Source: a virus
DNA length: 64,000 bases
Virus record (IMG/VR): IMGVR_UViG_3300025674_000031
Reading direction: 5' to 3' (one strand)
How positions within the stretch are numbered: position 1 is the first letter of the stretch; the number at the start of each line of letters is the position of its first letter. Below, in pieces: positions 5,955 to 36,836 of this stretch. Position numbers and translations under genes: made by a program. Below the pieces are notes generated by a model that saw nothing but the letters and a program-made list of their open reading frames with translations, made no database searches and was not told the origin of the DNA.

Positions 5955-5955
5955 G

Positions 5956-5965
5956 TAATAAATAG
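5956..5965 (-). promoter_or_regulatory. CTATTTATTA late-type motif
   Basis: The reverse complement reads CTATTTATTACATG, the same context as 46121 (GTATTTATTACATG). Confidence 0.5.
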
Positions 5966-5980
5966 AAAACAAAATCTGAA

Positions 5981-11015: not shown

Positions 11016-11228
11016 GTGAAGACGTTTAAAGAACTAAATTTAGAGATCGAAGGATTAAAAAGCAAACTACAAGAACTTGAAGACGAAAATGCCTCACTTT
11101 GGTTCTTATTAGATGAGTTAGAGAAGTCCAACATTGCAAATCCAGAATATCGAGAGTTATTTAAAGGTGTTTATGATAAATTGCGTTTTCAAAGCTTGAT
11201 GACAACTACCTCAGAGGGTGAGGCTTAA
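11016..11228 (+). CDS. Small coiled-coil hypothetical protein
   Basis: Heptad pattern; stop overlaps the Nudix start. Confidence 0.55.
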
Positions 11229-11692
11229 TGTACAGCGAAGTTGATTCGCAAGGAAGGCAGTTTTCAGCCCTCGTTGTGTTAAAGAGAGGTGATGAATTTT
11301 TACTTCTTTTAAGACCGGTTGGAATGAATATCAAATTTCCCAATATGTGGTCTTTTCCCGGTGGTGGATCTGAAAAAGGAGAAGAACCTCTACAGACAGC
11401 CATTAGAGAAGTTTATGAAGAGACTGGTTTAAGAGTATATCCTCAAGATTTAAAAATCTTATACCAAACAAAGGGCCCTGATGATAAAAAGAATGTTTAT
11501 TTCTTTGCTTGTGAGAAATGGGAAGGGAAAATAGACCAAAACAAAGTCAAGTCTGAGCATCAGAAATCTGAATGGGTCAAACTTTCAGACATGAAAAACT
11601 ATAAAATGCCTCCGAATAATTTAAACTTAATGAAAAGATTAGCTAACAAAACACTAATTGGTAAAAAAATTAAACTAATTATTAAACGATGA
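11228..11692 (+). CDS. Nudix hydrolase
   Basis: Nudix box [23 protein letters not shown]. Confidence 0.92.
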
Positions 11693-13595: not shown

Positions 13596-13869
13596 GGTTC
13601 CAGCCCTACCTTTCAGCCAAGTTATATTAGATAATGGCGTCATATTAAGAGAATTTAGCAGTTCTGTCCCAGTAAAAGAACTAGTCTGGCACATGGATGA
13701 AAAAGACAGGCATGTATTAGTCTTGGAAAGCGATGGGTGGTGTTTTCAAATGGATAATGAACTACCTCAAAAACTTTACAAGGGAGCAAAGCTCTTTATA
13801 CCAAAAATGACTTGGCACAGAGTAATTAAAGGTAGAGGGCCGTTCGTAATATCTATTAAAGAAAGCTAA
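13573..13869 (+). CDS. Small cupin-like phage protein (start uncertain)
   Basis: ELVWHMDEKDR..QMDNELP..IPKMTWHRVIKG; the track start at 13462 overlaps the upstream gene too far. Confidence 0.6.
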   Translation: MYPEDFGKVPALPFSQVILDNGVILREFSSSVPVKELVWHMDEKDRHVLVLESDGWCFQMDNELPQKLYKGAKLFIPKMTWHRVIKGRGPFVISIKES

Positions 13870-14564
13870 TGTCAAATTATTTAGATTTTAAATCAAAAGG
13901 CAAATTACATCCTAAGTTCTGGGATGAGGATGACAAACTCTCAACCTCAGTAAAATCTGCCTTGATGATCATTGCAGAAGAGTTCTTAGGTTTTTTAGGA
14001 ATTGACAACATCCAGTATGACGATATTAGATTTACAGGAAGTTTAGCAAACCTTGTTTATCATCCTGCTAGCGATATAGACCTTCATATTGTTGTTGATT
14101 ATGATAAAATCAACGAATATAAAGATGTGCTTAGAGAGCTCTTTTCAGCTAAAGCAGCTCTTTGGAACCAAAAGCATGATATAAAGATAAGGGGCCATGA
14201 AGTTGAGATTTATGTAGAGGATATATCCGAGCCTCACCACTCAACAGGTGTATACAGTATACTTAATGATGCATGGATCTCGTTTCCATCTGACCGAGCA
14301 GCAATATATGATATGGCTGCCCTTACAAAAAAAGTTTACCGCTATAGACGAAAAATAGAGTTCTTGCTTCGCAGGAAGCACCCAACACATTCTCAAGTTA
14401 ATCGATTAATCAAAAAAATCAAATCAATGAGGTCAACGGGTCTAAAAAAAGACGGTCCCGCATCCATAGAGAACTTAACTTTCAAAGCTTTGCGGCGGGC
14501 TGGGCTACTTGATGATTTATTTGACCTCAAGAACAGATTATATGATGAAAAATTTACTATTTAA
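13869..14564 (+). CDS. Pol-beta superfamily nucleotidyltransferase
   Basis: FTGSLAN..ASDIDLHIV (GS..DxD) plus EVEIYVED. Confidence 0.8.
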   Translation: MSNYLDFKSKGKLHPKFWDEDDKLSTSVKSALMIIAEEFLGFLGIDNIQYDDIRFTGSLANLVYHPASDIDLHIVVDYDKINEYKDVLRELFSAKAALWNQKHDIKIRGHEVEIYVEDISEPHHSTGVYSILNDAWISFPSDRAAIYDMAALTKKVYRYRRKIEFLLRRKHPTHSQVNRLIKKIKSMRSTGLKKDGPASIENLTFKALRRAGLLDDLFDLKNRLYDEKFTI

Positions 14565-14567
14565 TAT

Positions 14568-16955
14568 ATGAGCGACACTCCTTGGTATAAAAGAACCTAC
14601 GAAAGAGATACAAAAAATCGTAATGCCCTATTAGGCAAAAGAAAAGCCTCTAATAAGGGCTGGGAAGCGTACCCTGCTCGGCGGCCAGTAGATGAGCTTA
14701 GTGCTCCACCGATTACGGAAGGTGTCGCCGCCGATGTAGGCCATGTTCTTTTAGATGGTCTGGGGGTGATAGGCGATTTCTTCTACGGCTCTGGAGCAAT
14801 ATTCGACGCTGCTAATATGGTCTGGTACGCCAAAGAAGCACTTGAATATTATTCTGAGTTTGAAAAAACAGGTTACAGTGCCGTCAGTTTGCTAGCGAAA
14901 GCTGAACTGGGGTCGGTAGATCCAAGGGAAGCAGGTAAACTGAAACATGCGAGCGGTCTGTTAAGTAAAGCCCTAACCGCAGCCCTGTATAGTGCTCTTT
15001 CTGGTATTTCGATATTCCCCGGAGTCGGTGATCTGGCCGGTAAAAGTATAAAGTATACATTTAAGTCTCTTGATTTAATGCCTAAATTTATTTCTAGAGG
15101 CGCTGCAATGCTGGGCAAGCACCCGGAGAAACTAAACAAAGTCCTAACTGCTGCCGTTGATAAACGCATGATGACCACTGAGGAGGCGATTAAATTTATT
15201 GATATTATAGATGGGGCCAAAGTTGTAGCAAAAGAAGAGCTAAAAAACCCTCACATAGTAAGAAGAATGTTCGATATGGCCTCGGGGAGCTTTAAATTCG
15301 CAAGAGGCACACACAAATTCGCATCCGGCGCAGCCAAAGCAAGCGGAGAATTTGTTAGCAAGGCTACCCTTGGATCTGCCGCTAAAAGAACTTTAGGAGT
15401 TGTAGGAGAAATTGGTAAGTATAAGAAACTAACATCTCAGGCAGGGGAACTAGTAGACCCTGAAAAAAACGATACTCTCAAAGACACTCTCTCCAAGACT
15501 ATTGATCCTACTAATAAAGAAAGCGAAGTGTCAAAGCTTGTTAATAAGTTTGCAGGTGAAGGTATAGATGTTGCCAGCCTAACAAAGATGATATCATCTG
15601 ACAATGCTATTTCAACTATTGGGCAAGTGCTTTTAGCAATTTTTGCAATTAGTGGTGTATTAATAGGGAAACTTTTCTCAAGTGCATTTAACTTAATTCC
15701 CGATGCACCGACTATTTTGAAAAAATACAATAGCCCTTCTATTTATCCGGGCGGCGTTGCCATTCTCGCTGGTGACAGCCAAATGGCCGGTGGAATTGGT
15801 AAAGTTCTTGAGTCGGAACTGAGTTCTCGTGGTACCACAGTAATTGGAGGTCCGGGTAGCTCTTTGGCCCGTCCCGGTCGAAGCATCGGGCAGATGACTA
15901 ACGACAGCAGCTTCTTTGAAACACTGGAAAAAACCCAAGAACAAGTCGGGAACACCGACCGACAACTCAATGAAGCAGTAAAAGCGTCTCAGCGACTAAG
16001 CGTTGTCTTGAACTTGGGAGGCAATGGCCCAACATCAGGAGCGGCCAGCTTGGTTCAAAAAATCCACAAGATCTCTCCAAAGGCTCTTATTATTTTTTTA
16101 GGACCACCACCGCCAGTAGTAAGCAAATCAGGCTCTAAGAAATATTTAAAATTATTCAAAGAAAGGGAAGAGAAGAACAGAAGACTTGAAAGCCAGCTAA
16201 GTGTATTTCCTTATGTTAAATTTGTAGATCCTTACGACTATGTTCTCCCCTACTATAAAAAGGGCGGCGACGGCCTGCATATGCCGGAACCTATAGCCAA
16301 GAAATATATTTCAGACGTTTTGTCTAATATGCCACCAAGAATGTCCGACCCTGCGTCGATGCAAAGGCTCTTGTCCAAGCAGGATAAAGGATTTTCTCAA
16401 AGTACAAGTTCAGATTTAAAATTAAATGCTAATTTAAGCGGGGAACAGCTTGTAAACTTAAGAATTATATACAATTCCCTAACAAGTTACGGGTTCTCTG
16501 ACTTGATTGCTAAAGCCGCAATTGTTAATGCTTACGCCGAGTCTAGATTAAGATCAGAAGCGGTAGGAGATTCAGGTAATTCAATTGGCTTGTTCCAAGT
16601 CCATAGAAATGGCGCAGGGACACTGGTAAGCAAAAACAACCCAAAACTTGCTAACGAGTTCAATAAAACAAGAGAACTTTACAAAAGAATAAGGCCCGGC
16701 AAGTTTAATAAATCTTTTGCAGATAGTCGTCTTGCCTCGGGCGATATTCGATTCAGCCCTGAGCAAAATACAGCTATTATAGCTAAAGAGCTACAAGGCG
16801 GATTCGGCAGAAGGTTCCAGAACGAGCTTCAAGGAGTAGACGACATCCCCACCGCAGCCGCCCTATTTTCTAAGTATATTGAGCGACCAAAGGATAAAGA
16901 ACTTGCCATGAAGAAGAGGTACCAGCTAGCTAAAAAAATGTTTTCGGCAGCTTAG
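14568..16955 (+). CDS. Multidomain protein: PT-TG-like helical region, SGNH/GDSL hydrolase and phage tail lysozyme-like domain
   Basis: LDGLGVIGD..DAAN..IFPGVGD; LAGDSQM..LGGN..DGLH; AIVNAYAES..GDSGNSIGLFQ..YIERP; ACTATTTAAT motif at 14556. Confidence 0.7.
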   Translation: MSDTPWYKRTYERDTKNRNALLGKRKASNKGWEAYPARRPVDELSAPPITEGVAADVGHVLLDGLGVIGDFFYGSGAIFDAANMVWYAKEALEYYSEFEKTGYSAVSLLAKAELGSVDPREAGKLKHASGLLSKALTAALYSALSGISIFPGVGDLAGKSIKYTFKSLDLMPKFISRGAAMLGKHPEKLNKVLTAAVDKRMMTTEEAIKFIDIIDGAKVVAKEELKNPHIVRRMFDMASGSFKFARGTHKFASGAAKASGEFVSKATLGSAAKRTLGVVGEIGKYKKLTSQAGELVDPEKNDTLKDTLSKTIDPTNKESEVSKLVNKFAGEGIDVASLTKMISSDNAISTIGQVLLAIFAISGVLIGKLFSSAFNLIPDAPTILKKYNSPSIYPGGVAILAGDSQMAGGIGKVLESELSSRGTTVIGGPGSSLARPGRSIGQMTNDSSFFETLEKTQEQVGNTDRQLNEAVKASQRLSVVLNLGGNGPTSGAASLVQKIHKISPKALIIFLGPPPPVVSKSGSKKYLKLFKEREEKNRRLESQLSVFPYVKFVDPYDYVLPYYKKGGDGLHMPEPIAKKYISDVLSNMPPRMSDPASMQRLLSKQDKGFSQSTSSDLKLNANLSGEQLVNLRIIYNSLTSYGFSDLIAKAAIVNAYAESRLRSEAVGDSGNSIGLFQVHRNGAGTLVSKNNPKLANEFNKTRELYKRIRPGKFNKSFADSRLASGDIRFSPEQNTAIIAKELQGGFGRRFQNELQGVDDIPTAAALFSKYIERPKDKELAMKKRYQLAKKMFSAA

Positions 16956-16967
16956 CCACTATTTATC

Positions 16968-18485
16968 ATGATGTATGAAATAGTAAATCCAGATAATCTA
17001 TTCTATTCAAAAAATAGCAAACTAGTTAATGATTTTATGGATTTTTCTAGTAAAAATCTAAGGTTTGAAAAGCCGGTTACAATTGATTTTATAGAGGATA
17101 ATAGCGCAGGACAAGATCCGCTTGGCAAGACTGCACACTATAACCCTCAAGAAATGTCCATTGTTGTCTATACCACAAATAGGCACCCAAAGGATATATT
17201 GAGATCACTTTCGCACGAACTTGTACATCATTGCCAAAATTGCAATGGCGAAATTCCTTTGGATTCTAGCACAGAAAAAGGCTATGCCCAAACTGATGAA
17301 ACGATGCGGAGCTTAGAAAACGAAGCATACCAAAAAGGAAATATTGAAAATATCCGAAAATTTATGAATTTCCGTGACTTCGAGGACCAATACAAAATGA
17401 AGGAAAACAAAAAACAAGTGAACGAAGTGGGCGCCGCCCCTAACATAAATCAATCTTTTGCAGCCGACAAGCAGCGCCGGAAAGACCAAGGCCCGGACTT
17501 GCTACCTGCAGAAAAAAAAGAACTGGAAAGAAGAATAATAGACAGACAAGATGTAGCAAAAAGAATAGGAGTTGAACCAGACAAAGTTGCGTATGTAGAC
17601 CTGAAACTTCTTAATACTATCGCACAACTAAAAAAATTATCTGATTCAAGTCCTCTAAGTATGGAAGCTCCAACAGTTAAATCTGTTAGGAGGGAAATTG
17701 CAGCACTCGACGACCGCAAGGCGTTCGCTGCCCTTTATAAAGCTACTCCCTTTCTATGGCGGGGCCGTGTTCGACGCCTTCGGGCCAGCGGCGGCAAGAA
17801 GTCCCGGCTATCGAAGAAACAACGAGAAGGTAAACATATAATATCGCTCCAGAAAGCAATTGAAGACTACCATAAAGAAACTAAAGACCCCGGCATGAAA
17901 ATTAAAGTTACCGGTAAGTATAATAGAGAAACACAAAGAGCAATAAATAAATTGCGGCGCAAGCATTCAGGTTTTCCAAAAAGAAATCGTGATTTTGAAA
18001 AGAGTGTATCTGCTATTACACTTTGGTTACAAACTTGGTTAGAAGTTAGAGAAGATGAAAAGGCTGAGGCTGGCAAGAAGGCTGAGGCTGGCAAGAATGT
18101 CAAGTCCGCTCCTGCTAAGGGGGCGGCGCCAAGCTCTGGCAGTACAAATACAGCCCTTGCCAAATCTGCCGATCTTAGTAAAGAGTATGACCAGTTAATA
18201 GCCGATCGGAGAAGAATTGACCGTATGCCACCGGGACCACTTAAAAGAGAGGCTGAAAGGCAGCACAAAGCGCAATTAGCAGACTTTAAAAGGAGAAGAG
18301 CCGCCGCATCCGGCTTCGGGGTTAATGAGAACGTTGATCCAGCATTTGACCAAGCCGAGGTTTCCAAAAAGAGTAAAAAGCGACCTTTGCGTGAAAATCA
18401 AAAAGCAGATCGTAATGAGATGCTTTCAAGAATCCTAACTGAAAGATTGCTCGGAAATGTTAAAATTAAAATTAAAAATAACTAA
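16968..18485 (+). CDS. Multidomain protein with an N-terminal HExxH zincin-like domain and a possible PG-binding-like segment
   Basis: RHPKDILRSLSHELVHH..ENEAY; ISLQKAI..VTGKYNRETQRAI; ACTATTTATC directly before the ATG. Confidence 0.65.
   Translation: MMYEIVNPDNLFYSKNSKLVNDFMDFSSKNLRFEKPVTIDFIEDNSAGQDPLGKTAHYNPQEMSIVVYTTNRHPKDILRSLSHELVHHCQNCNGEIPLDSSTEKGYAQTDETMRSLENEAYQKGNIENIRKFMNFRDFEDQYKMKENKKQVNEVGAAPNINQSFAADKQRRKDQGPDLLPAEKKELERRIIDRQDVAKRIGVEPDKVAYVDLKLLNTIAQLKKLSDSSPLSMEAPTVKSVRREIAALDDRKAFAALYKATPFLWRGRVRRLRASGGKKSRLSKKQREGKHIISLQKAIEDYHKETKDPGMKIKVTGKYNRETQRAINKLRRKHSGFPKRNRDFEKSVSAITLWLQTWLEVREDEKAEAGKKAEAGKNVKSAPAKGAAPSSGSTNTALAKSADLSKEYDQLIADRRRIDRMPPGPLKREAERQHKAQLADFKRRRAAASGFGVNENVDPAFDQAEVSKKSKKRPLRENQKADRNEMLSRILTERLLGNVKIKIKNN
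18060..18095 (+). repeat. Exact 18-bp tandem duplication (KAEAGK x2)
   Basis: AAGGCTGAGGCTGGCAAG twice. Confidence 0.9.
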
Positions 18486-21400
18486 ATCTTTGTCCGAATC
18501 CGAAGAAGCTGCTAGTGATGCCGCTGACCCTGCCGAACAGGATATCCATTATAATTACAAGAAGCTCGAAGAAATTTCCTCTATGGCAGGCGGGAGCGTA
18601 GCAGGAGGTATATCTGGCTGGGCCGATGATGATTTCGGAAATAATAAGCGCTCTTTAAAAGAGGGCGGCAACATCTTCAAGACGCCAGAAAAAGAACCTG
18701 CAACAAAGCGCATTAAAAGAGAAAATGTAGATGGAACCTTGCAATGGCTAGAGGATTTAACTGGTCTGCCACTAGTAAACAATAAACTAGGCACAACTGG
18801 GAAAAGAGAAACCTCAGGGGACTTAGATATAGCAGTTAGTTATGACTCCTCGAACAAAGATGATCTAACTGCTATTTTATTAAAGTGGTTAATAGAGAAT
18901 AAGCCCGAGCTTGGATTATCAGAATTGCCATCAGCAAAGGGAAAAAGGCTGAAAGAGTTAAAAAAGACTCTACGAGGATGGATCGCCCATTCAGGAAATT
19001 CTGTACATTTTAAAACTCCAATCCTAGGCGACGAATCTAACGGCTTTGTCCAAACTGATTTTATGTTTGGAGATGTTGATTTTATGAAATGGTCAACGCA
19101 GCCTGAGTACGGAGATAAGTATAACGGCCATCATAGGCACGTCCTTTTAAATGCAATAGCCAAAACAAAAGGATACGCTTGGGGCGGTTTTACTGGTTTA
19201 AAGCGCAGAGAGACAAAAGAACAGATTAGTGATCCTGATCAGATAGTTAAAATACTTTTCGATGGAAAACTTAGCAAAGACCAAATGACCTCTATTGACA
19301 ATCTCATCAAATATATAAATGATGAACAAAACGTCAGCGAAGAAGATTATGAAGTAATTCATCAAATGGTCAATAATGTAGTCGATTTGCCTCATCGCAA
19401 CAGTACAGAAAACGATCTTGTCACAGAGGGCACCCTACCAAAAGGAAGAATCCACCATCCTGAGGATCTAATGCTTTGGCAAGGTTCCGAGGGGGCTTTG
19501 ACAGCTTTAGATTTAATCGAAAAAGCATTGAAAGAGAAAAACAGCACAACTCTAAAATGGGACGGCTCCCCTGCTGTTATATTTGGACGTGATGAATCCG
19601 GCGAATTTATATTCGCTGACAAAAATGCGTTTGTAGTCAAATCCTATGACGGTAAAGTGAAAAGCCCCGAGCAGATGCAAGACGTTCTCTTGAACAAGCG
19701 TCATAGAGATAAGGGAAAGGAGCCCTCGGAGTCATACATTCAATTTGCGAATAAAATGACAGAAGCTTTTTCTCTAGTTGAAAAGAACTTTCCAGAGAAC
19801 TTTCAGGGATATTATTTCGGAGACTTACTTTATTTTAATAGACCCGAACTACTAGATGGCCATTATAAGTTTAAGCCGAATGTAGTCGAATACACGGTTA
19901 AGGCTGATTCAGATCTTGGCCGAGACATATCAAAGTCAGAGCTAGCAATTGCTGTTCATGGCATGATTGAACTGGGCGGAGAAAAAAAACCTTTAACGGA
20001 CTTTTCAAACACCTTATTGGGCGATGTACTGTTGTTGAGCCCAGTTCATTCCGATACGGATATCAATTTCGATGTAAGAAAACTGTCTAAAGTCCAAGCA
20101 AAAATAAATTCTTGTAAGGATTCTTTAGATTTTATGGCTGGCGACTTTTCAGCGGCACGCCTATCCGATTTGCCAAATATATTCTACAGGTATATTAACT
20201 TTCAGACAGCTAATGATTTTAATAATTTGGCAAGTAATTTTTTACCTTGGATTGACTCACAGAGTAAATTTACAAATTCAAAAAAAGAATCAATTAAATC
20301 ACTCGTTGAAGATCATAAATCGAAGGTCAACGACCTCTTCGAATGTTACATGGCGTTAATGGAAGTGAAGAACGACATTGTTGCCTCGCTAGATACCAAG
20401 AATGACCAAATACGGGCATCGATTGGGGACATACCAATCGGTGAGGGCTACGTTATATCCTTGGGAGGGACTACAATAAAGTTGGTCGATAGAAGCAAGT
20501 TTACGAGGGCCAATAGATCAGTGATCCGAGAATCAAAAGAGCGTGAGCTATCCAGTATTCTTTTCATCCCCGGTGGATTTAAGCCACCGCACAAAGGGCA
20601 TATAGAGCTTATAAAACAAGCAATCAAAAAAGCCGGCCCGCTTGATCAAGTCTATATTGTATCTGGAAAGGACACAAGAGGGACTGTAACCGCTGAGCAA
20701 GCAGAAAAAGTTTTCGAGATAATGCTTGAAGAAGAAGGTCTATTGGGGTTGGTTGAGTTAGTATACTTTGATAAAGTCGCCACTGGTAAGACCTACAGCG
20801 ACACACCAGCAAACATAAAAAAAGGAATAGCTGGCCAGCCGATCCTATCCAACAGCCCAATGGTTAAAGTTGGTCTCATTGCCGCTGAAGTCGCAAAAGA
20901 TAATGCTGATATTTTAGTTGCAGCATCGAAAGCAGACCCAAAACATACTAAAGTTGCTGATAGAGTTATTAATTACCATGCTAGCGAGGTAGACAAGAGA
21001 TTTAATGTAGAGGCTGTAGTAGTAGACCCATTAGCCGCATCTGAAGATGCTAAAGTAAGTGCTACAGATATGAGAGCGGCAATCCAGTCTGGAAACTATG
21101 AGGAATTCACTAAATTTGTTCCAGACTCTGTCGATCCTGAAAACGTTCAAAAGATCTTCAGCATACTTACAGGAAAGGAGCCTAATTATAACATGAAAAG
21201 CAAGAACGAAATAGTCGAAAAATACAAAAGAGGCAAGCTTTTAGAAGAAAGGGTTCTCAGAAAATACATTAGAGGTAAAATTCTAGAATCAAAGCTCCTG
21301 AAAGAGTTGGCCGATAACGAACTGACTTCAAGTACTGGTACCAATATCGCTGCCAAAACACTTGAAAAATTTATTAAAGGTCTTCCAACCCAGTACAAAA

Positions 21401-22143
21401 CTTTAGCTTCGTCAAAAGAGCAAAGACTTTCTTATGCCGCTCACTATATTCAGGCTATTAAAAATAGCATGATTTCTGTTCTTGCTAAGAAAGGCCTAGA
21501 TCTATCGACTACTGATGAACCTGTTGGCCTCGCCGTGGGAGGCGAGCCCTCAGGAGAAAAATTTACAGTTTCAAAGGCCCCAGATCAAACTGAAGAACCG
21601 CCACCTGCTGAAGATGAGCTAATGTCTGAGCAAGAAGATGACGAGCTTGGCGATCTTAATCTAGATCTGGACGCAGATGAACAGGAAGGGGAGATTGACC
21701 CAGAAGGTGAAGTAATGCCTGTCACTCCAGACGAAAAAGCCAAAGTTAAGAAAGAAAAGGCAGCACAGAAAGTACTTGATCCAGAACAAGAAGAAATGAT
21801 GCCTCAGATTTCTGGTTTGGACGATACAGGTCGTGAATTGGCGTCAGAAGACGTTAAAGTGGCAATCGCTGCCGTAAAAGACGGCGTTAACATGCTTACT
21901 GATGCGACTGATGTTAAGGATTTCATTTCCACCCTCATTACTCAAATTAAGATCCGCTTTAATCTTGCTGAGAGGGAAATAACCGGCACAGATGCAACAA
22001 ATATCAATAGCACTCCAATTTCATCAGCAGAAAAGTTTATGAATCAACTTGAGGAGTCGAAAAGCCCAAACAGCTCTTTAAGTATCGACGACTTTTTGAT
22101 AAAATCATTGAAAGAGATGATGAAAAATGTCAGCAAAAGATGA
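18457..22143 (+). CDS. Polyprotein-like: Pol-beta-type NTase, KxDG ligase-like domain, HIGH-family nucleotidyltransferase and acidic tail
   Basis: GTTGKRETSGDLDIAV..VQTDFM; RIHHPED..TLKWDGSPA; IPGGFKPPHKGH..KVSATDMR. Confidence 0.75.
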   Translation: MLKLKLKITKSLSESEEAASDAADPAEQDIHYNYKKLEEISSMAGGSVAGGISGWADDDFGNNKRSLKEGGNIFKTPEKEPATKRIKRENVDGTLQWLEDLTGLPLVNNKLGTTGKRETSGDLDIAVSYDSSNKDDLTAILLKWLIENKPELGLSELPSAKGKRLKELKKTLRGWIAHSGNSVHFKTPILGDESNGFVQTDFMFGDVDFMKWSTQPEYGDKYNGHHRHVLLNAIAKTKGYAWGGFTGLKRRETKEQISDPDQIVKILFDGKLSKDQMTSIDNLIKYINDEQNVSEEDYEVIHQMVNNVVDLPHRNSTENDLVTEGTLPKGRIHHPEDLMLWQGSEGALTALDLIEKALKEKNSTTLKWDGSPAVIFGRDESGEFIFADKNAFVVKSYDGKVKSPEQMQDVLLNKRHRDKGKEPSESYIQFANKMTEAFSLVEKNFPENFQGYYFGDLLYFNRPELLDGHYKFKPNVVEYTVKADSDLGRDISKSELAIAVHGMIELGGEKKPLTDFSNTLLGDVLLLSPVHSDTDINFDVRKLSKVQAKINSCKDSLDFMAGDFSAARLSDLPNIFYRYINFQTANDFNNLASNFLPWIDSQSKFTNSKKESIKSLVEDHKSKVNDLFECYMALMEVKNDIVASLDTKNDQIRASIGDIPIGEGYVISLGGTTIKLVDRSKFTRANRSVIRESKERELSSILFIPGGFKPPHKGHIELIKQAIKKAGPLDQVYIVSGKDTRGTVTAEQAEKVFEIMLEEEGLLGLVELVYFDKVATGKTYSDTPANIKKGIAGQPILSNSPMVKVGLIAAEVAKDNADILVAASKADPKHTKVADRVINYHASEVDKRFNVEAVVVDPLAASEDAKVSATDMRAAIQSGNYEEFTKFVPDSVDPENVQKIFSILTGKEPNYNMKSKNEIVEKYKRGKLLEERVLRKYIRGKILESKLLKELADNELTSSTGTNIAAKTLEKFIKGLPTQYKTLASSKEQRLSYAAHYIQAIKNSMISVLAKKGLDLSTTDEPVGLAVGGEPSGEKFTVSKAPDQTEEPPPAEDELMSEQEDDELGDLNLDLDADEQEGEIDPEGEVMPVTPDEKAKVKKEKAAQKVLDPEQEEMMPQISGLDDTGRELASEDVKVAIAAVKDGVNMLTDATDVKDFISTLITQIKIRFNLAEREITGTDATNINSTPISSAEKFMNQLEESKSPNSSLSIDDFLIKSLKEMMKNVSKR

Positions 22144-22549: not shown

Positions 22550-22879
22550 ATGAAAGTTACAGAATTGAAAGTAGGTAACATTTACAAAGTAAATAAAAAA
22601 AGTAATTTATATCCAATATATGTAAAATATAAAGATGATAAAGGAAAAGAAGTAATAAAGTTATTATCCTTTCACGATAAAGGTACTTGGATAAATGTTA
22701 ATAATCTTAGACCTGAGCATTGTGTAACTAAAGACTCAAACTATATCTTTATAGCTAAAGAAAAATTACGATTGTATGGTAAGGTAAAACTTACTGCTTA
22801 TAAATTCTGGTGCATAGAACACGCAGAATTTTTTTATTTTAAAAGTAAAAAATTAAGATTTCTAACAGAGGCAATATAA
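22550..22879 (+). CDS. Hypothetical protein (AT-rich)
   Basis: Stop overlaps the purA start. Confidence 0.6.
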   Translation: MKVTELKVGNIYKVNKKSNLYPIYVKYKDDKGKEVIKLLSFHDKGTWINVNNLRPEHCVTKDSNYIFIAKEKLRLYGKVKLTAYKFWCIEHAEFFYFKSKKLRFLTEAI

Positions 22880-23871
22880 TGATCACAGACGTAGTAGTAG
22901 GTTTACAATATGGTGATGAAGGCAAAGGAAAGGTTACTCATCACCTGTGCAAGAAAGGCCACTATTCTCATGTTTTAAGATTTAACGGAGGATGTAATGC
23001 TGGGCACACTATAATCCATAATGGAAAAAAATTTGTGACCCATCACATTCCAGCCGGTGTATTTTTTGGGATTAAGTCTATTATAAGCAACGGCTGTGTA
23101 GTAAACATTGCTCAATTTAAGAAAGAACTAGACTATCTAAACAGCAACGGTGTAAAGACCAAGGGGCTTATTTTTATTGCTAAAAATGCCCACATTATCA
23201 CAGATGAGCATCTTGAGCTAGATCTAAAGGATAAGAAGATTGGCTCAACAAAAAGAGGAAACGGGCCTGCATACTCAGACAAGTATGCTAGGACAGGTTT
23301 GCGAGCCGAAGATGTTCCTGAGCTAAAAGAGTACTTAATTGATCTTTATAGAGAATTCTACCACGACCACAAAAACCCAAGAATACTCTGTGAGGGAGCG
23401 CAGGCATTTGGCCTTGACATTGACTGGGGAGATTACCCCTTTGTAACCTCAAGTCACTGCACTACTGCCTCAATCTTTCTGAATGCTATAGAGCCGTCCT
23501 CTCTTCGTAAGGTTTATGGCGTTTGTAAAGCATATGAGACTTATGTTGGCATGAAAAGGTTCCAGCCCACCAACCCTGTTTTCAAAAAGCTACAGTTGTA
23601 TGGTAATGAGTATGGTTCAACAACTGGAAGAGCAAGGCAATGTAACTGGCTCAATTTAGACTTTCTAAAGAAATCCATTAAAATGAACTACGTTACTCAT
23701 TTAGTAATAAACAAGATGGACGTTCTGAATGATTTAGGAGTTTGGAGCCTTTACGAAGGCGATAATACAATGTACTTCCCTTCAGATAAAGAATTTAAGA
23801 AGCATATTACTGAGAACTGCGATAATGGTCTAGCTTCAATTCAGTTCTCATACCATCCAGATAAAATTTAA
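22879..23871 (+). CDS. purA: Adenylosuccinate synthetase (short form)
   Basis: QYGDEGKGK, RFNGGCNAGHT, EGAQ..LDID.GDYPFVTSS, EYGSTTGRAR. Confidence 0.95.
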   Translation: MITDVVVGLQYGDEGKGKVTHHLCKKGHYSHVLRFNGGCNAGHTIIHNGKKFVTHHIPAGVFFGIKSIISNGCVVNIAQFKKELDYLNSNGVKTKGLIFIAKNAHIITDEHLELDLKDKKIGSTKRGNGPAYSDKYARTGLRAEDVPELKEYLIDLYREFYHDHKNPRILCEGAQAFGLDIDWGDYPFVTSSHCTTASIFLNAIEPSSLRKVYGVCKAYETYVGMKRFQPTNPVFKKLQLYGNEYGSTTGRARQCNWLNLDFLKKSIKMNYVTHLVINKMDVLNDLGVWSLYEGDNTMYFPSDKEFKKHITENCDNGLASIQFSYHPDKI

Positions 23872-24107: not shown

Positions 24108-24761
24108 ATGCAACAAGGCAAGAAATACTGGTGCAGCGCCGACACCAAAGAAGAAATGGCAAACGAGACACCTCAGCAACAAATTATTTTGTTAGGAGAT
24201 CACGGCGGCGGTAACAATAATTCCAATGCTCCGGTAGAAACAATTGATAACAGTATTATGTTCTATGGAAATGTTGATGGTCCTAATGCAAAACTATTTA
24301 ATAAGGCAGTGAGAACTCTCGACACAGATCTACAAATGTTTGGTGTTCGATATAGAGCAACACCACCACCAATAAGGGTACATATCAGTTCTGATGGCGG
24401 ATCTTTACTAGATGGATTTTCGATGATGGATACGATTGTAAATTCTGTTACGCCTGTACACACATATATTGATGGCCATGCTGCATCGGCAGCTACTTTG
24501 ATCTCTGTTGTTGCAGATAAAAGGTTTATGTTTAAAAATTCCCGATTATTGATTCACCAGCTTTCATCTGCCGTGTGGGGCAAGTTCGAGGATATTGTCG
24601 AAGAGGTAGAAAACCTTGACTCCTTCATGAAGCAGATTAAGAAAATCTACAAAGATCACACTAAGATTAGTGCGAAAGATCTTAACGAAATTCTTAAAAA
24701 AGACAGATGGTTTACTGCTGAAGAGTGCTTGAAGATGGGTATTATTGACGAGATTGTATAA
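24108..24761 (+). CDS. clpP: ClpP-like serine protease
   Basis: ISSDGGS, IDGHAASAA (Ser), LIHQ (His), KDRW (Asp). Confidence 0.85.
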   Translation: MQQGKKYWCSADTKEEMANETPQQQIILLGDHGGGNNNSNAPVETIDNSIMFYGNVDGPNAKLFNKAVRTLDTDLQMFGVRYRATPPPIRVHISSDGGSLLDGFSMMDTIVNSVTPVHTYIDGHAASAATLISVVADKRFMFKNSRLLIHQLSSAVWGKFEDIVEEVENLDSFMKQIKKIYKDHTKISAKDLNEILKKDRWFTAEECLKMGIIDEIV

Positions 24762-26092
24762 TGGCAACTAAAAAAACTTACATCCTAGATACTAATGTAT
24801 ATTTGTCTGACCCTGTAGCTTTCAAGAAGTTTGGAAGATCAGATATTGTAGTCCCATTAAAGGTTCTTGAAGAGATAGATAAGCATAAGAAAAGGCAAGA
24901 TACTGTTGGTGCAAACGCAAGAGCAGCAATACGACACCTTGATGAATTAAGGGGCAAGGGCTCATTGCTCACAGGAGTAAGGATAGAAAAGGGAAAGGGG
25001 CTTTTATATAGCAAAACATCGGATATAAGTCTTTTACCGGATGAAGCCAATAGAAACGACAGCGACAATGTAATTCTTGCTTGTGCTCTTTCATTACAGA
25101 AGGAAAACAAGAAAGTAATTGTAGTCTCAATAGACATTAATTTGAGAGTCCGATGTGACGCTCTAGGGTTAAAGTCCGAAGATTATAATATCAATCAAGT
25201 TGTTTCCGAAAAGGACGACTTATACACTGGCTTTACCAAGCACTTAGTAGATGATGAAATCATTGATCGTTACTACTCGGGCGACGATGTTTATATCGAC
25301 AAGGAAGAGAAAGAGTTGCTACCAAATCAGTTTGTAATGCTGGTATCTTCCTCTAACGAAAAAAAGACTGCACTTGCGAGATTTGCAGACTATAACACGC
25401 CCTTGCTCAAAGTTCGATCTAAGTCAAGCTCTAAAAGTGTTTTTGGTGTTCGCCCAAGAAACAAAGAGCAGTCTTTCGCTCTAGACCTTTTGCTCGATCC
25501 CAACATTCCAATCGTTTCTTTGATCGGCGCTGCGGGGTGTGGCAAAACCCTTTTAGCAGTAGCCGCCGGTATGGAACAGGTTTTAGAGCCGCCCGAAAAT
25601 GCAGATCAGGCCCGCTACAAGAAATTAGTAGTATCCAGACCCATCATGCCAATGGGAAGGGATATTGGTTTCCTCCCCGGCACAGTTGAAGAAAAGCTCG
25701 CCCCGTGGCTAGCCCCAATTCAGGATAATCTAAAGTTCCTTATCGGAGATGATAGAACAACTCTTGATATCTACATGGACAAAGGATTAATCGAAATGGA
25801 GGCTTTGACGTATATCAGAGGAAGATCTATAGCCAATGCTTTCATTATCATTGATGAGGCGCAGAACCTTTCTGTTCACGAGTTAAAGACAATCCTTACA
25901 AGGGTGGGCGAGGGTACCAAAATTGTATTAACTGGCGATATTGAGCAGATCGACACTGTTTATCTGGATGCTACCACTAATGGGCTGTCCTATGCGGTCG
26001 AAAAATTTAAAGAACATGCTATCGCAGGACACATTACTCTGAAGAAAGGTGAGCGGTCAAACGTTGCAACACTAGCTGCTAAGGTTCTTTAA
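24761..26092 (+). CDS. phoH: PIN domain plus PhoH ATPase (PhoH2/YlaK-like)
   Basis: LDTNV, DNVIL, GAAGCGKT, GRDIGFLPG, YIRGRSI, IIDEAQNL. Confidence 0.92.
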   Translation: MATKKTYILDTNVYLSDPVAFKKFGRSDIVVPLKVLEEIDKHKKRQDTVGANARAAIRHLDELRGKGSLLTGVRIEKGKGLLYSKTSDISLLPDEANRNDSDNVILACALSLQKENKKVIVVSIDINLRVRCDALGLKSEDYNINQVVSEKDDLYTGFTKHLVDDEIIDRYYSGDDVYIDKEEKELLPNQFVMLVSSSNEKKTALARFADYNTPLLKVRSKSSSKSVFGVRPRNKEQSFALDLLLDPNIPIVSLIGAAGCGKTLLAVAAGMEQVLEPPENADQARYKKLVVSRPIMPMGRDIGFLPGTVEEKLAPWLAPIQDNLKFLIGDDRTTLDIYMDKGLIEMEALTYIRGRSIANAFIIIDEAQNLSVHELKTILTRVGEGTKIVLTGDIEQIDTVYLDATTNGLSYAVEKFKEHAIAGHITLKKGERSNVATLAAKVL

Positions 26093-26093
26093 G

Positions 26094-26768
26094 TTGTTAA
26101 AGTATATACAAGAAAGTGCAAATAGAAAACAAAGTATTCATGGCGTGCCGGTGTCAGATCAAATCAACATTGGTCAACGCTTAAACCTTTCTTTGATTAA
26201 AGATTGGATAGAAGCTAACATTCCCCGTAAAGCATTCAACGATATCATCGAAGTTTGTTTTACAAATGAAGCTGAATATAATGAGCGAATGATCAATGCC
26301 TACTATGATAGGGAAAGCCGCTGTATTTTTCTATCCGATAAGCAAGAAAATGAAAAGGACTGCATAAATGACATAGTTCATGAATTATCACATGCCCTAC
26401 AAGAACGCTATGGGCAACATGTATTCATGGACGGTGAATTAAAAAACGAGTTCGTTTCAAAGCGAATGAAGATGGCATCAGTTTTACACCGTGCCGGTTA
26501 CGATGAAATTCCCCGCCGCAGTTATGCTATGGTAGAGTATAGCAACTTGCTTGATGAATATTTTTTCAATATTGTAGGGTATCAAAAGATTAACTCGCTC
26601 CTCGGCGCAACATTTCCGTCAGCGTATGCCTGCACTTCATTGGAAGAATATTACGCTGAAGGGTTTGAAGCTTATTATTGTAAAGAAAATGGGCGCTCTT
26701 ACCTTAAAAAATATTGCCCAGTTCTCTTTACCAAGCTAAGTACATTAGAAAAAGAACTTTACAAATAA
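26094..26768 (+). CDS. HExxH zincin-like metallopeptidase
   Basis: IVHELSHAL plus EEYYAEGF. Confidence 0.55.
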   Translation: MLKYIQESANRKQSIHGVPVSDQINIGQRLNLSLIKDWIEANIPRKAFNDIIEVCFTNEAEYNERMINAYYDRESRCIFLSDKQENEKDCINDIVHELSHALQERYGQHVFMDGELKNEFVSKRMKMASVLHRAGYDEIPRRSYAMVEYSNLLDEYFFNIVGYQKINSLLGATFPSAYACTSLEEYYAEGFEAYYCKENGRSYLKKYCPVLFTKLSTLEKELYK

Positions 26769-26792: not shown

Positions 26793-27575
26793 ATGGAAAA
26801 AATAAGCTATTCTCAGCTTGACGTATGGAATACATGCCCGCACAAGTACAAGCTACGATACATTGACAATGTAGACAAATTCAGCGTCACCGAGTTCACT
26901 GCTTTTGGTAGAGCAATCCACTCTGCTGCTGAAATGATAGCAAAATCCGATAAGTCGTTTGATGGAGTGCCTCATTTTAATGATGAATTTTTTAAAGAAA
27001 TCAAAGAGGTGAAAGAGTCATATGCTAAAGAAGACAAAGAAATTCGCAAAGATCTTGTCTTGGCGATGCTCGAACAAGGCTCTATCCTGTGTAAGCTTAT
27101 TAGGCCCACACTAGACTCGCATTTCCCAAACTACGAAATCTTCTCAGTAGAGGAAAGGCTGAAGGTTCCAATTGATGGGGAAGATGATGTCGATTTCAAA
27201 GGGTTCGTTGACTTAGTGATAAAAGATCGAAATGGTAGAATTATTATGATCGATTGGAAGTCTTGTTCGTGGGGCTGGGACTCAAAAAAGAGGACCGACA
27301 AAATGAAGGCCTACCAACTAGTTCTCTATAAGCACTTTTTCTCGAAAAAGCACGATATACCCCCTGAGAATATCGATGTGTATTTTGGTCTCCTGAAAAG
27401 GACTGCGAAAAAAGACAATACAGAGCTATTCAAGATAACAAGTGGGTCAAAAAGGGTCAAAAACGCTCTTAAACTTCTTTCAAGCGCCATCTATAATATT
27501 GATTCCGGTTTTCTAATAAAAAACAGAACATCGTGCAGTAGATGCGATTTTTATAAAACAGAGTATTGTAAATGA
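26793..27575 (+). CDS. PD-(D/E)XK exonuclease (RecB/Cas4-like family)
   Basis: ISYSQL..CPHKY, GFVDL, IDWKS, YQL..Y, CSRCDF..C. Confidence 0.85.
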   Translation: MEKISYSQLDVWNTCPHKYKLRYIDNVDKFSVTEFTAFGRAIHSAAEMIAKSDKSFDGVPHFNDEFFKEIKEVKESYAKEDKEIRKDLVLAMLEQGSILCKLIRPTLDSHFPNYEIFSVEERLKVPIDGEDDVDFKGFVDLVIKDRNGRIIMIDWKSCSWGWDSKKRTDKMKAYQLVLYKHFFSKKHDIPPENIDVYFGLLKRTAKKDNTELFKITSGSKRVKNALKLLSSAIYNIDSGFLIKNRTSCSRCDFYKTEYCK

Positions 27576-28825
27576 AAAAAATTAAAGTTATGACAATATC
27601 AGATATGCCGTTTTCGGTTTCTGGCGTTGCTCACCAAACAAAAATCTTTATCGAGTCTCTTCTAAAGACAGGAGAATTTGAGATAGTAAGCTTGGGCGGA
27701 TTATTAAAACACGATAACTATAATCCAATCAAAACAAAAGAATACGGCGACGCTTGGATCACATACCCAGTTGATAAATTTGGAACTCCAGACATTGTTA
27801 GAACAGTCATCAAGATGCACAAGCCAGATGTTTTATGGTTTATGACAGACCCAAGATATTTTGAGTGGCTATGGGCTATCGAGGATGAGATTCGACCCTT
27901 AATGCCTATGGTTTATTATCATGTCTGGGATAACCACCCAGCGCCATTGTTTAACAAGCCATACTATGACTCAACAGATAAAATTGTAACCATTTCTAAG
28001 GTAACTGATGAGATTGTTTCTGAGGTATCCCCTGAAACGGATAGAGAATACCTTCCTCATTCAGTCCATAGTGAGGTCTTTAAGGCCCATACGGACGAGG
28101 TCGTAGACAAACTCAGAACAGATAATCTCAAAGAAGACAAAGATAAGTTTATTTTCTTCTGGAATAATAGAAACGCCAGAAGAAAGCTGGCTGGCACAGT
28201 CATTTATTGGTTTGGTAAGTTCTTGGATGAAGTAGGGCACGATAAGGCAAAATTATTAATGCACACGGAGCCTCACGATCCAAACGGTCCAAACCTTACT
28301 GATATTTTATCTAGATTTGGCTTGGATAAGGGGCAGGTTTCTTTTTCAACCACTAAAATGCCTCCTGAGCAGCTAGCAATGATGTATAACCTTGCAGATT
28401 GTACAATAAACATTTCTGATGCTGAAGGCTTTGGATTATCGACGCTTGAGTCTTTATCCTGTGAACGCCCCGTCATTGTTAACAAGACGGGCGGCCTGAA
28501 AGAGCAAATAACAGATGGAAAGTGCGAGTTCGGTGTTGGCATTGACCCTGCCTCGCAGATCATCGTGGGCACTCAGAACGTGCCATATATCTATGAAGAT
28601 CGTGTAGCCGAGAGGGACTTTGTTGCTGCTCTCAAGAAGATGTATGAGATGTCTCCTGAGGATCGAAGAGAGTTAGGAAGAAAGGGCCGTGCTCATGTAG
28701 TAAAGAACTATAATTTTGAGAATATTGTAAAGCGCTGGCCGGAACTCATTAAAGAGATCCATAAGAAATATGGATCATGGGATACAAGAAAGGGTTATGC
28801 ACTTTGGGAACTAAAAGAGGTATAA
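27572..28825 (+). CDS. GT-B (GT4) glycosyltransferase
   Basis: NNRNARRK, AEGFGLSTLE..PVI..GG..E. Confidence 0.85.
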   Translation: MKKIKVMTISDMPFSVSGVAHQTKIFIESLLKTGEFEIVSLGGLLKHDNYNPIKTKEYGDAWITYPVDKFGTPDIVRTVIKMHKPDVLWFMTDPRYFEWLWAIEDEIRPLMPMVYYHVWDNHPAPLFNKPYYDSTDKIVTISKVTDEIVSEVSPETDREYLPHSVHSEVFKAHTDEVVDKLRTDNLKEDKDKFIFFWNNRNARRKLAGTVIYWFGKFLDEVGHDKAKLLMHTEPHDPNGPNLTDILSRFGLDKGQVSFSTTKMPPEQLAMMYNLADCTINISDAEGFGLSTLESLSCERPVIVNKTGGLKEQITDGKCEFGVGIDPASQIIVGTQNVPYIYEDRVAERDFVAALKKMYEMSPEDRRELGRKGRAHVVKNYNFENIVKRWPELIKEIHKKYGSWDTRKGYALWELKEV

Positions 28826-28826
28826 G

Positions 28827-30824: not shown

Positions 30825-31494
30825 TAAGACAATAGCTTTTTCTTTATGGGGAAACAATCCAAAATATACTGCCGGTGCAATTAAAAATGCTGAATTGTCT
30901 AGTAAATTTTATACTGACTGGAAGCAGAAATATTATATAGGAAGCTCAGTCCCAAATCAGATAGTTTATTTATTAGAAGAATTTTCCAATGTTGAAATAA
31001 TAGAGAAGGAAGGTTTAGAAGATTGGACATCTTTATTTTGGAGGTTTGAAGCATCATATGATGATGATAGTGATGTAGTAATTTTTAGAGATACAGATTC
31101 TAGACTTTCATTAAGAGAAGAATTGGCAGTAAAAGAATGGCTTGATAGCGACAAGACTTTTCATATTATGAGAGATCACCCTTATCATAAATTTCCTATC
31201 CTAGGAGGTATGTGGGGCTTAAAGAAAAGTAAAAAATATAATTTACAAAATATATTAGAAAGATTTATAAAAGAACAAGCTTTTGATAAATACGGAACAG
31301 ATTATGAATTCTTAGGTAATATACTGTATCCAAAAATTATTGAGGATGTATTAATTCATGATGAATTTTTTTCGAATAATCCCTTTCCAAGCAAAAGAAG
31401 AGATGGCCACTATGTAGGAAAACCTTTTGAATATGATGATAGGCCTTCTTTGCCAGAAGCAGAGTTAAAACGATTCGGGATTTATTTTGAATAA
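30817..31494 (+). CDS. Putative GT-A-fold glycan biosynthesis protein
   Basis: IAFSLWG, FWRF, FRDTDSR, MRDHPYH..ILGGMWG. Confidence 0.6.
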   Translation: MLNKTIAFSLWGNNPKYTAGAIKNAELSSKFYTDWKQKYYIGSSVPNQIVYLLEEFSNVEIIEKEGLEDWTSLFWRFEASYDDDSDVVIFRDTDSRLSLREELAVKEWLDSDKTFHIMRDHPYHKFPILGGMWGLKKSKKYNLQNILERFIKEQAFDKYGTDYEFLGNILYPKIIEDVLIHDEFFSNNPFPSKRRDGHYVGKPFEYDDRPSLPEAELKRFGIYFE

Positions 31495-31562
31495 TTCTGT
31501 GTAGAAAATGTGAATGTGCAAGAGAAATATCGGTTAGCAAAAAAAGTAAGGATATAAATAAA

Positions 31563-34589: not shown

Positions 34590-34881
34590 TATAGATGAAA
34601 CAATTTGTTTTTACGAACAAGAGCACGAACTGGACAGTAAAAAAGATTATTCTTTAGCTATTCCAAATTTTACTAATATTGAAAAAATTAATAAACTATA
34701 CGACAATGGAAATAGAATTGTTTATTGGACTGCTAGGGGAAGTAGAAGCGGAATAGATTGGCATGATTTTACAGAAAAACAATTGAAAGAGTGGGGTGCA
34801 AAGTTTAATTTATTAAAATGCGATAAACCCTATTATGATATTTTTATAGACGATAGAAACAAGAGGATAGAGGAAATATAA
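34570..34881 (+). CDS. HAD-like (capsule biosynthesis-type) phosphatase
   Basis: Start ATG 34570; YVDIDETI, WTARG, KPYYDIFIDD. Confidence 0.8.
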   Translation: MKTIYVDIDETICFYEQEHELDSKKDYSLAIPNFTNIEKINKLYDNGNRIVYWTARGSRSGIDWHDFTEKQLKEWGAKFNLLKCDKPYYDIFIDDRNKRIEEI

Positions 34882-35342: not shown

Positions 35343-35366
35343 AACAAAGGAAATAATAATTAAAAA

Positions 35367-36835: not shown

Positions 36836-36836
36836 A

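Follow-up and report, generated by a model that had tools for sequence, protein, structure and literature searches.

We analysed a 64,000-nucleotide stretch of viral DNA (IMG/VR virus record IMGVR_UViG_3300025674_000031; hereafter the window) and report on one of its genes, 18457-22143 on the plus strand, whose product P0001 we tentatively read as a modular phage enzyme that heals and seals broken nucleic-acid ends, with RNA, probably cleaved tRNA, slightly favoured as the substrate. After a leader, P0001 carries a domain resembling family-X polymerases (N), a domain of Pfam family DUF6267 with a predicted ligase fold (M), a HIGH-type nucleotidyltransferase domain assigned by profile (C) and a tail (T). 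All of these domains belong to known superfamilies. An initial annotation made from the sequence had described one polypeptide with three unrelated nucleotidyl-transfer folds and an acidic tail. The list of open reading frames (ORFs) and the translation gave a single frame of 1228 amino acids, in which every quoted motif was found at its position and the acidic run was present, and the three domains fell into three separate superfamilies.

The fusion gene is real and conserved, since a protein identical to P0001 is present on an ENA metagenome contig and a 1158-residue relative, 41% identical, occurs on several marine contigs with the same gene order (NUDIX, large proteins, fusion, PurZ-like, ClpP-like, PhoH, PD-(D/E)xK, glycosyltransferases). 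Full-length relatives show 40-43% identity, and a search of 1.84 billion representatives returned 1390 relatives at E≤0.001. No nucleotide-level relative of the window was found among 50,697 phage records, and the whole protein gave no match to solved structures in a plain sequence search. When IMG/VR was scanned for close relatives with P0001 as a single query no match appeared, whereas an alignment-based scan did find loci.

The N domain resembles a minimal family-X polymerase

Across 62 aligned sequences (alignment A1), the N domain follows one pattern: a nearly invariant L.EGGN(V/I)FK start, then LGTTG.K.TSGDLD and then VQTD(F/L)MF. In the SGDLD motif, D65 (alignment numbering) is invariant and S61, G62 and D63 are nearly so; in the VQTDF motif, Q140 is invariant and V139 and D142 are nearly invariant. 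To judge from the sequence, these motifs are a Pol-beta-fold signature with three carboxylates. The AF2 model of the domain had a pLDDT of 92.7. When this model was compared with the PDB by Foldseek, a check that the initial annotation had proposed, the best 50 matches were all Pol lambda, mu or beta. The top nine solved matches obtained with VIA-align, a search independent of Foldseek, were likewise all family X, with moderate Z values of 7.3-8.7 over 153-180 aligned residues; they included Pol beta (Z 8.7, 180 residues), Leishmania Pol beta, Thermus PolX, TdT, the PolX of African swine fever virus (ASFV; Z 7.7, 153 of 176 residues aligned), Pol lambda and Pol mu. TUTases, poly(A) polymerases, CCA-adding enzymes, OAS and CD-NTases aligned over about 85-115 residues, the palm alone, and CD-NTases, cGAS and OAS, matching the palm core only, did not exceed Z 5.2. 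The fingers and the 8-kDa dRP-lyase domain are absent from the model and nothing is folded upstream of residue 69, as in ASFV PolX. The modelled fold is that of a palm-plus-thumb mini-PolX. Searches with residues 40-340 gave no Pfam match at E≤1, leaving the N domain without a Pfam family, and the A1 profile gave no match among PDB chains. The N family appears to be undescribed.

DUF6267 is a predicted ligase

The M domain matched DUF6267 (PF19782) with an E-value of 2e-34 and 120 bits (cut-off 27), over profile positions 4-371 of 376. In the corresponding alignment (A2, 116 sequences) K42, D44 and G45 of the KWDG motif are invariant, as are E338 and G339, and V341, K350, V352 and R354 are nearly invariant. 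The AF2 model (pLDDT 95.2) contains an all-helical insert at model residues 215-323, preceding ligase motifs IV and V, and a single helix past motif V; there is no OB-fold domain in the model. VIA-align placed the Naegleria RNA ligase NgrRnl (Z 7.8, 183 residues) and Trl1-LIG (Z 7.2, 195 residues) first, with REL1 and T4 Rnl1, Rnl2 and Rnl3 among the further matches, followed by DNA ligases at Z 5-6.8. Overall, Z values of 5-7.8 were obtained to at least 20 RNA and DNA ligases and a capping enzyme, with 142-196 residues aligned. The Foldseek comparison proposed by the initial annotation was less clear for M than for N: the match list consisted mostly of ligases but at weak E-values, with nothing in the PDB at E≤0.001. 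A profile of the domain did not match any solved structure, and sequence profiles gave no tie to the Trl1/Rnl families. The ligase assignment rests on VIA-align, on the invariance of the motifs and on the make-up of the match lists. In the AlphaFold DB clusters, the first ligase-named match outside the family was an 'RNA ligase domain-containing protein'. Among the best 50 matches in BFVD, the ligases among those named and outside the family were RNA ligases or a polynucleotide kinase/ligase, and none was a DNA ligase. The assignment of DUF6267 as a ligase appears to be undescribed; a full-text literature search returned nothing for DUF6267, nor for 'cytitidyltransferase'.

A tblastn search detected M homologues in 162 phage records, nearly all of them cyanomyoviruses. 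Among 185,579 species genomes M was found at 14 loci, all on contigs of metagenome-assembled genomes (MAGs), which we took for binned phage DNA rather than cellular homologues, and we read M as phage-specific. In three complete T4-like marine phage genomes, S-WAM1, Melnitz-3 and S-SZBM1 (L001, L002 and L004), DUF6267 is the sole ligase-fold gene: no ligase of PF01068, PF01653 or PF09414 was found in them, so that Pfam recognises neither an ATP- or NAD-dependent DNA ligase nor an RNA ligase of the Rnl type there, the controls being positive.

The modules are tightly linked across marine phages

N and M, and M and C, show a tight evolutionary linkage. Among the best 150 relatives, M stood alone in 75 and N alone in 7, and the fused architectures were N-M (41), N-M-C with or without the tail (9), M-N (6), C-N-M (6) and N-C (2). 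Relatives thus encode the domains separately as well as joined, a point that the initial annotation had left to be checked, and as separate genes N and M are neighbours in most IMG/VR loci, M and C in cyanomyoviruses. The alignment-based scan of IMG/VR confirmed more than 549 loci with an N domain. In the 80 loci kept (L025-L104), N and M were separate neighbouring genes on the same strand in 65, always with N first and with a median gap of -4 nt; the overlap suggests translational coupling. This N-then-M operon appears to be undescribed. Many of its carriers are probably jumbo phages, because the longest contigs with the pair, 70-148 kb, were rated merely 20-43% complete.

M adjoins C in S-WAM1 and S-SZBM1, and is fused to it in S-PM2 and in distant AFDB/BFVD relatives at 13-14% identity. 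S-WAM1 has no N homologue anywhere in its genome, and the cyanomyoviruses have M and C without N. In S-WAM1 and Melnitz the gene that precedes DUF6267 was considered as a candidate N homologue and rejected as not homologous. Relatives also carry fusions to an NT5C/HAD phosphatase, to the uncharacterised DUF2608 and to an Acb1-type 2H phosphoesterase. Split, adjacent or reordered, the modules occur in hundreds of marine phages.

The C domain is closest to archaeal NMNAT and PPAT

In the 17 sequences of alignment A3, P16, G17, F19, K20, P21, P22, H23 and H26 are invariant (PG.FKPPH.GH), as are A180 and R184, with S179 nearly invariant (SA..(M/L)R). The best match of the A3 profile in the PDB was the archaeal NMNAT MJ0541 (E 8e-6), followed by many PPAT and NMNAT/NadD chains, and both motifs align to MJ0541 and PPAT. 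The Pfam family CTP_transf_like scored 21.1 bits on the isolated domain, against a cut-off of 21, and 17.6 bits within the whole protein; cytidyltransferase families of PHROG matched the domain too. Both motifs are common to the cyanomyovirus 'cytidylyltransferase', the SATDMR of P0001 aligning with LSASKMR in the S-WAM1 cytidyltransferase. On these profiles, C is a HIGH-type nucleotidyltransferase whose nearest relatives are archaeal NMNAT and PPAT, and its tie to the cyanophage cytidylyltransferase appears to be undescribed. At a guess, its product would be a pyrophosphate-linked adenylate, NAD+ being the simplest. Consumers of NAD+ include the NAD+-dependent ligases and, in RNA repair, 2'-phosphotransferases (PMC7824862).

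One could place the whole protein in nucleotide or cofactor metabolism, C making NAD+ or another dinucleotide, and N and M making or destroying small nucleotide signals, in opposition to NAD+-depleting or cyclic-nucleotide defences. Ligases and Pol-beta nucleotidyltransferases (NTases) can indeed make dinucleoside polyphosphates or cyclic nucleotides, C is nearest to NMNAT and PPAT, one relative is fused to an Acb1-like domain, and NUDIX and PurZ-like nucleotide enzymes are encoded nearby. However, N matches template-binding family-X polymerases over both palm and thumb and the CD-NTases, cGAS and OAS over the palm core only, M retains the full set of ligase motifs, and none of the partners Nampt, Adps and Namat was present among the window ORFs examined. 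We consider this explanation highly improbable. Decoy second messengers, which the initial annotation had also put forward, found no support beyond the single Acb1-like fusion.

A predicted role in end healing and sealing

In the mechanism that we favour, N would act as a stripped-down family-X-type nucleotidyltransferase, using D122, D124 and D201 to extend a 3'-OH end by one or a few nucleotides. K367 of the M ligase would take AMP, pass it onto a 5'-phosphate and so seal the break, and the NMNAT/PPAT-like adenylyltransferase C would make a pyrophosphate-linked adenylate, with NAD+ as the simplest candidate, either for the same pathway or to restore a depleted cofactor. We infer the substrates, the order of the steps and the coupling of C to M. 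The reading draws on the three folds with their catalytic motifs and on the linkage of N with M and of M with C; a 3'-end-extending nucleotidyltransferase joined to a ligase follows the logic of known heal-and-seal systems. Several features point to RNA: an OB domain is absent from M, RNA ligases are its best solved and its named viral neighbours, the fusion partners are classic (RNA) end-healing enzymes, and repair by a Pol-beta NTase together with an RNA ligase is well established. RlaP, which accompanies RNA ligases in bacteria and phages, is such an NTase (PMC7824862); it adds 1-2 nucleotides to damaged RNA and is required to restore over-trimmed tRNA (2025 preprint, 10.64898/2025.12.29.696909). 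Of the functions listed by the initial annotation, RNA end repair is the best supported, but a DNA role is nearly as likely.

A number of observations weigh against the healing and sealing of RNA. All solved enzymes that resemble the N model over its full length are DNA polymerases. The RlaP family PF10127 did not match the N region, where no Pfam family matched at E≤1. Motif V of M reads IKLVxR, with the first lysine only of K-x-K and R354 nearby, hence one lysine rather than two. The M model reaches middling structural Z values, at which RNA and DNA ligases score practically alike. The genes around M in T4-like phages serve replication and recombination: gp41, UvsX and gp43 adjoin it in cyanomyoviruses and Melnitz, gp46/gp47-like genes do so in two other phages, and four MAG-binned phage contigs have gp41 upstream of M. 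A Pfam tally of 66 genes flanking N-M pairs revealed no recurrent (repair) partner. Finally, the role of C is guesswork and forms the weakest link.

Part of this evidence would suit a module that fills and seals DNA, which we regard as possible but somewhat doubtful. N would then be a gap-filling or end-extending DNA polymerase, in agreement with its full-length structural matches, which are exclusively family X DNA polymerases and include the 174-residue ASFV PolX, the partner of a viral ligase. M would be the phage DNA ligase, the one missing from T4-like marine phages that lack gp30; the lack of another recognisable ligase in the three M-carrying genomes fits a DNA ligase role equally well. 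The absence of an OB domain from M argues the other way, since to our knowledge characterised DNA ligases possess one, and so does the absence of DNA ligases from the best 50 viral structural neighbours, in which the named ligases are those of RNA. The module might serve lagging-strand maturation, recombination-dependent replication, or the joining and repair of the incoming genome, and one relative is fused to an NT5C-type deoxyribonucleotidase-family phosphatase; however, the T4-like replication-cluster neighbourhood is weak evidence, and the cyanomyoviruses with M and C but without N indicate that the coupling of polymerase and ligase is not universal. Were M to use NAD+, which is pure conjecture, C might regenerate it from NMN.

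Junction motifs and possible delivery with the virion

The initial annotation had seen protease-like sites between the domains and had suggested their co-delivery at the start of infection. T4 prohead protease gp21 cuts after L/I-x-E, thereby removing 10-residue capsid-targeting leaders (PMC9026906). P0001 as a whole is not enriched in the pattern [LIVM]xE[GSAT], with 8 sites versus 6.5 ± 2.4 in shuffled sequences. At the junctions the motif is conserved: a hydrophobic-x-E precedes 55 of 57 N-domain starts in relatives, and a site of the (L/I/V/M)xE(G/A) type lies at most 12 residues upstream of the M start in 83 of 99 relatives, versus 6% of random 12-mers. As protease sites these motifs are nevertheless ambiguous, because their residues are at the same time part of the conserved N-domain and M-domain starts, and the N start motif is present even where only 3-6 residues precede it. 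The only protease seen in the window is of the ClpP type, not of the T4 gp21 type. Its gene (24108-24761, plus strand; PF00574, E 8e-30; PHROG head maturation protease, E 2e-40) is flanked by the PurZ-like and PhoH genes and not by capsid genes, and large related IMG/VR contigs carry one or two ClpP-type genes, some scoring far stronger (1e-80). A tblastn search of the window with T4-core proteins from S-SZBM1 and head-module proteins from G001 detected no head-module gene.

Support for co-delivery is indirect. The cyanophage cytidylyltransferase, the homologue of C, was detected in CsCl-purified virions of S-SZBM1 and S-CREM2 (PMC9146016, PMC10665884). Furthermore, a 1271-residue protein with the architecture of P0001 is encoded on an IMG/VR contig (L025) together with a Peptidase_S77 prohead protease (E 6.5e-30). 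P0001 may plausibly be cleaved at its conserved (L/I/V)xE junctions and delivered with the virion.

Taken further, such delivery could be the only bond between the domains, which would be functionally independent early or counter-defence effectors sharing a capsid route, cut apart after (L/I/V)xE by a prohead protease and injected with the DNA. The split M and C genes retain leaders of 10-25 residues ending in a site of this type (MRFRQFIIEA in the cyanophage cytidylyltransferase, MKKFSEIIEA in Melnitz, MRFFEF...xE in M proteins), reminiscent of T4 propeptide logic; the junction motifs are kept in relatives, one of which has an Acb1-like anti-CBASS domain, and an upstream neighbour of the fusion has a tail-lysozyme domain. 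The MRFFEF leader was found in 21 of 39 split M proteins versus 15 of 238 in the background, and in 73 of 74 in IMG/VR. We discounted it as a capsid-targeting signal: by eye it matches the internal N-M linker GFEFP of the fused forms, so that it need not be one, and many of the proteins are close kin. The virion data also have their limits, as DUF6267 is missing from the listed S-SZBM1 virion proteins and contamination of the virion preparation was noted as possible by the authors of PMC10665884. With junction residues inside conserved domain starts, a window whose sole protease is ClpP-type and which has no detected head module, and a regularity in the order, overlap and fusion of N and M that unrelated cargo would not show, we find a mere cargo polyprotein unlikely.

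An even less probable version combines these ideas. The polyprotein would be delivered in the virion and cut after (L/I/V)xE by a prohead protease, within the capsid, into a mini-PolX, an OB-less ligase of a new family (DUF6267) and an NMN adenylyltransferase, injected with the DNA to repair tRNA or genome ends within seconds of infection; the ligase would use NAD+, which the fused adenylyltransferase would restore from the released NMN, and the peptide (L/I)EEMSSMAGG.V.GYSLPLG would be a docking signal to the capsid core or the sliding clamp.

Comparison with known systems

The preferred reading of P0001 as an end-healing and sealing enzyme has its closest parallel in RlaP (PF10127; NrdC.11 in T4, also in jumbo phages), likewise a Pol-beta-superfamily NTase genetically coupled to a ligase in RNA-repair operons (PMC7824862). 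The proposed logic is the same, with one or two lost 3' nucleotides restored before sealing, and HAD and 2H end-healing enzymes are frequent partners there (PMC7824862; 10.64898/2025.12.29.696909). P0001 differs in that N has no PF10127 match at E≤1 and resembles a family-X palm and thumb, in that its ligase is DUF6267 rather than Rnl1, Rnl2 or RtcB, and in the added HIGH-type adenylyltransferase. Since N fails the RlaP profile, the fusion would be analogous and not homologous to the RlaP system.

Multi-domain heal-and-seal enzymes are also known in the fungal and plant tRNA ligase Trl1 (LIG-KIN-CPD) and in T4 Rnl1 with Pnkp, and in the structural comparison of M, Trl1-LIG and T4 Rnl1 ranked near the top. 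In one relative M is joined to a 2H phosphoesterase, a domain in the fold class of the Trl1 CPD. The fusion differs from these enzymes in lacking a kinase domain and in its helical M module, which is an insertion ahead of motifs IV and V and not an appended part; sequence profiles do not tie M to these families. A polymerase and a ligase are combined in bacterial LigD (polymerase, phosphoesterase and ligase) and in the ASFV pair of PolX and ligase, with the order permuted between lineages, and ASFV PolX likewise consists of palm and thumb only. However, the LigD polymerase is primase-type, not family X, the LigD ligase has an OB domain, and neither system includes a HIGH-type transferase.

The cyanomyovirus pair of DUF6267 and 'cytidylyltransferase' contains homologues of M and C, adjacent or fused, but has no N domain, its genes are mostly separate and identity to P0001 is 22-27%; no function is given for the pair in the literature (PMC9146016). 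As for delivery, the T4 internal head proteins and Alt carry capsid-targeting propeptides removed by gp21 after L/I-x-E (PMC9026906). The fusion likewise has (L/I/V)xE at every module boundary, and split relatives have short leaders ending so; it differs in that its sites coincide with domain starts and no gp21-type protease was seen in the window.

Feature coordinates, leader and tail

The features of the gene and protein are collected in Table 1.

Table 1. Positions in the window of P0001 and of its domains, motifs and junctions.
Feature	Residues	Position	Strand	Description
Whole gene P0001		18457..22143	+	leader, N, M and C domains and tail, in sequence order
N-terminal leader	68 aa	18457..18660	+	missing from most relatives, which begin M..L.EGGN(V/I)FK
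Conserved linear motif LEEISSMAGGSVAGGIS		18565..18615	+	inside the P0001 leader
Leader-N junction LKE/GGNIF	67-74	18655-18678	+	conserved hydrophobic-x-E site
N domain	69-325	18661..19431	+	minimal family-X-polymerase-like palm and thumb
SGDLD	120-124	18814..18828	+	first two predicted metal-binding carboxylates, D122 and D124
VQTDF	198-202	19048..19062	+	third predicted catalytic carboxylate, D201
N-M junction VTE/GT	322-326	19420-19434	+	conserved (L/I/V/M)xE(G/A), upstream of the RIxHxED M start and outside the modelled M domain
M domain	326-695	19432..20541	+	Pfam DUF6267; predicted covalent nucleotidyltransferase (ligase) fold, helical insert, no OB domain
KWDG	367-370	19555..19566	+	ligase motif I; K367, predicted nucleotidyl-lysine
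GEGYV ... IKLVDR		20440..20493	+	ligase motifs IV (E663, G664) and V (K675)
M-C junction IRE/SK	690-694	20524-20538	+	(V/I)x-R-E/x form kept in fused relatives including the L025 protein
C domain	696-960	20542..21336	+	HIGH-type nucleotidyltransferase, NMNAT/PPAT-like, from sequence profiles
PPHKGH	710-715	20584..20601	+	HxGH nucleotide-binding signature
SATDMR	868-873	21058..21075	+	second HIGH-fold signature (ISxTxxR type)
T tail	961-1228	21337..22143	+	two conserved helical blocks flanking an acidic low-complexity run (~21574-21756)

The linear motif takes the form (L/I)EE(M/I)S.M(A/G)GG.V.G(Y)S(L)PLG in relatives, where it is placed between C and the tail; in P0001 it has moved into the leader. 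It opens with an (L/I/V)xE-type site, the fourth conserved element of that kind, and its second half is reminiscent of QLSLPL, a clamp-binding hexapeptide of bacteria. A pattern scan of IMG/VR gave 25 hits, 20 of them in proteins homologous to P0001 in M, C or T and the other 5 in ORFs that showed no such homology. A form of about 22 residues, (L/I)EEMS(S/A/T/G)M(A/G)GG.V.G(Y/F)S(L/M)PLG.K, stands at the C-terminus of C proteins, at the N-terminus of tail proteins, or between the two (L106-L130; P0003-P0011). The tail is common to P0003, P0004, P0006, P0062 and the L025 protein, and is also found in stand-alone motif-plus-T proteins. The acidic run of P0001 spans residues 1040-1100 approximately. 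No Pfam family matched the tail, and its ESM Atlas neighbours were all unnamed viral clusters.

Genomic context of the fusion gene

The window comes from a large, myovirus-like marine phage; its genes include a baseplate wedge, a gp55-like late sigma factor, a PurZ-like synthetase, PhoH, a ClpP-type protease and a sugar-modification island. The start of the fusion overlaps the upstream ORF by 29 nt. The two genes directly upstream, both on the plus strand, encode a 795-residue protein with a C-terminal phage tail lysozyme domain (14568-16955; PF18013) and a 505-residue protein (16968-18485), which matched no known family and whose N-terminus resembles, by eye, that of a 1157-residue protein of a related phage. 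Both may be virion-associated. Three genes upstream of the fusion (13869-14564, plus strand) lies the gene for a second, unrelated Pol-beta-fold protein of 231 residues (PF01909 NTP_transf_2 at threshold; phrog_36119, E 6e-43), whose N-terminus is, again by eye, similar to that of an 844-residue protein of the same related phage (L005:796-3330).

Downstream on the same strand, the PurZ-like gene (22879-23871) encodes an adenylosuccinate-synthetase homologue (PF00709, E 7e-84; PHROG '2-aminooxy adenylosuccinate synthetase', E 9e-68). A NUDIX hydrolase gene (11228-11692, plus strand) lies 11 kb upstream of it, and both are syntenic in the related phage. The phage DNA may contain 2-aminoadenine in place of adenine. 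Next come a PIN-PhoH fusion (24761-26092; PF13638 and PF02562), kept in the related phage, and a 224-residue protein with weak matches to zinc-metallopeptidase families (26094-26768; PF07737 and PF20573), both on the plus strand. A low-GC island at about 27570-39700 on the plus strand (28-32% versus ~40%) encodes glycosyltransferases, a methyltransferase and two nucleotide-sugar epimerase-like proteins and may serve surface or DNA sugar modification. The minus strand carries a YkuD-type L,D-transpeptidase-like gene (2896-3606) and a gene for a 526-residue protein with an endolysin-like segment (4392-5972).

Implications

N would rank among the smallest polymerase-like enzymes known, in an abundant family with a PolX-like fold that is nearly always coupled to DUF6267. 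DUF6267 itself gains a concrete prediction, that of a ligase with K367 as its predicted active lysine, and the long-annotated cyanophage 'cytidylyltransferase' gains a biochemical partner. If P0001 is packaged and processed, protein delivery in the style of T4 would be extended to enzymatic repair kits. Should tRNA or genome ends indeed be mended by the module, this would reveal a way in which abundant ocean phages withstand nuclease-based defences.

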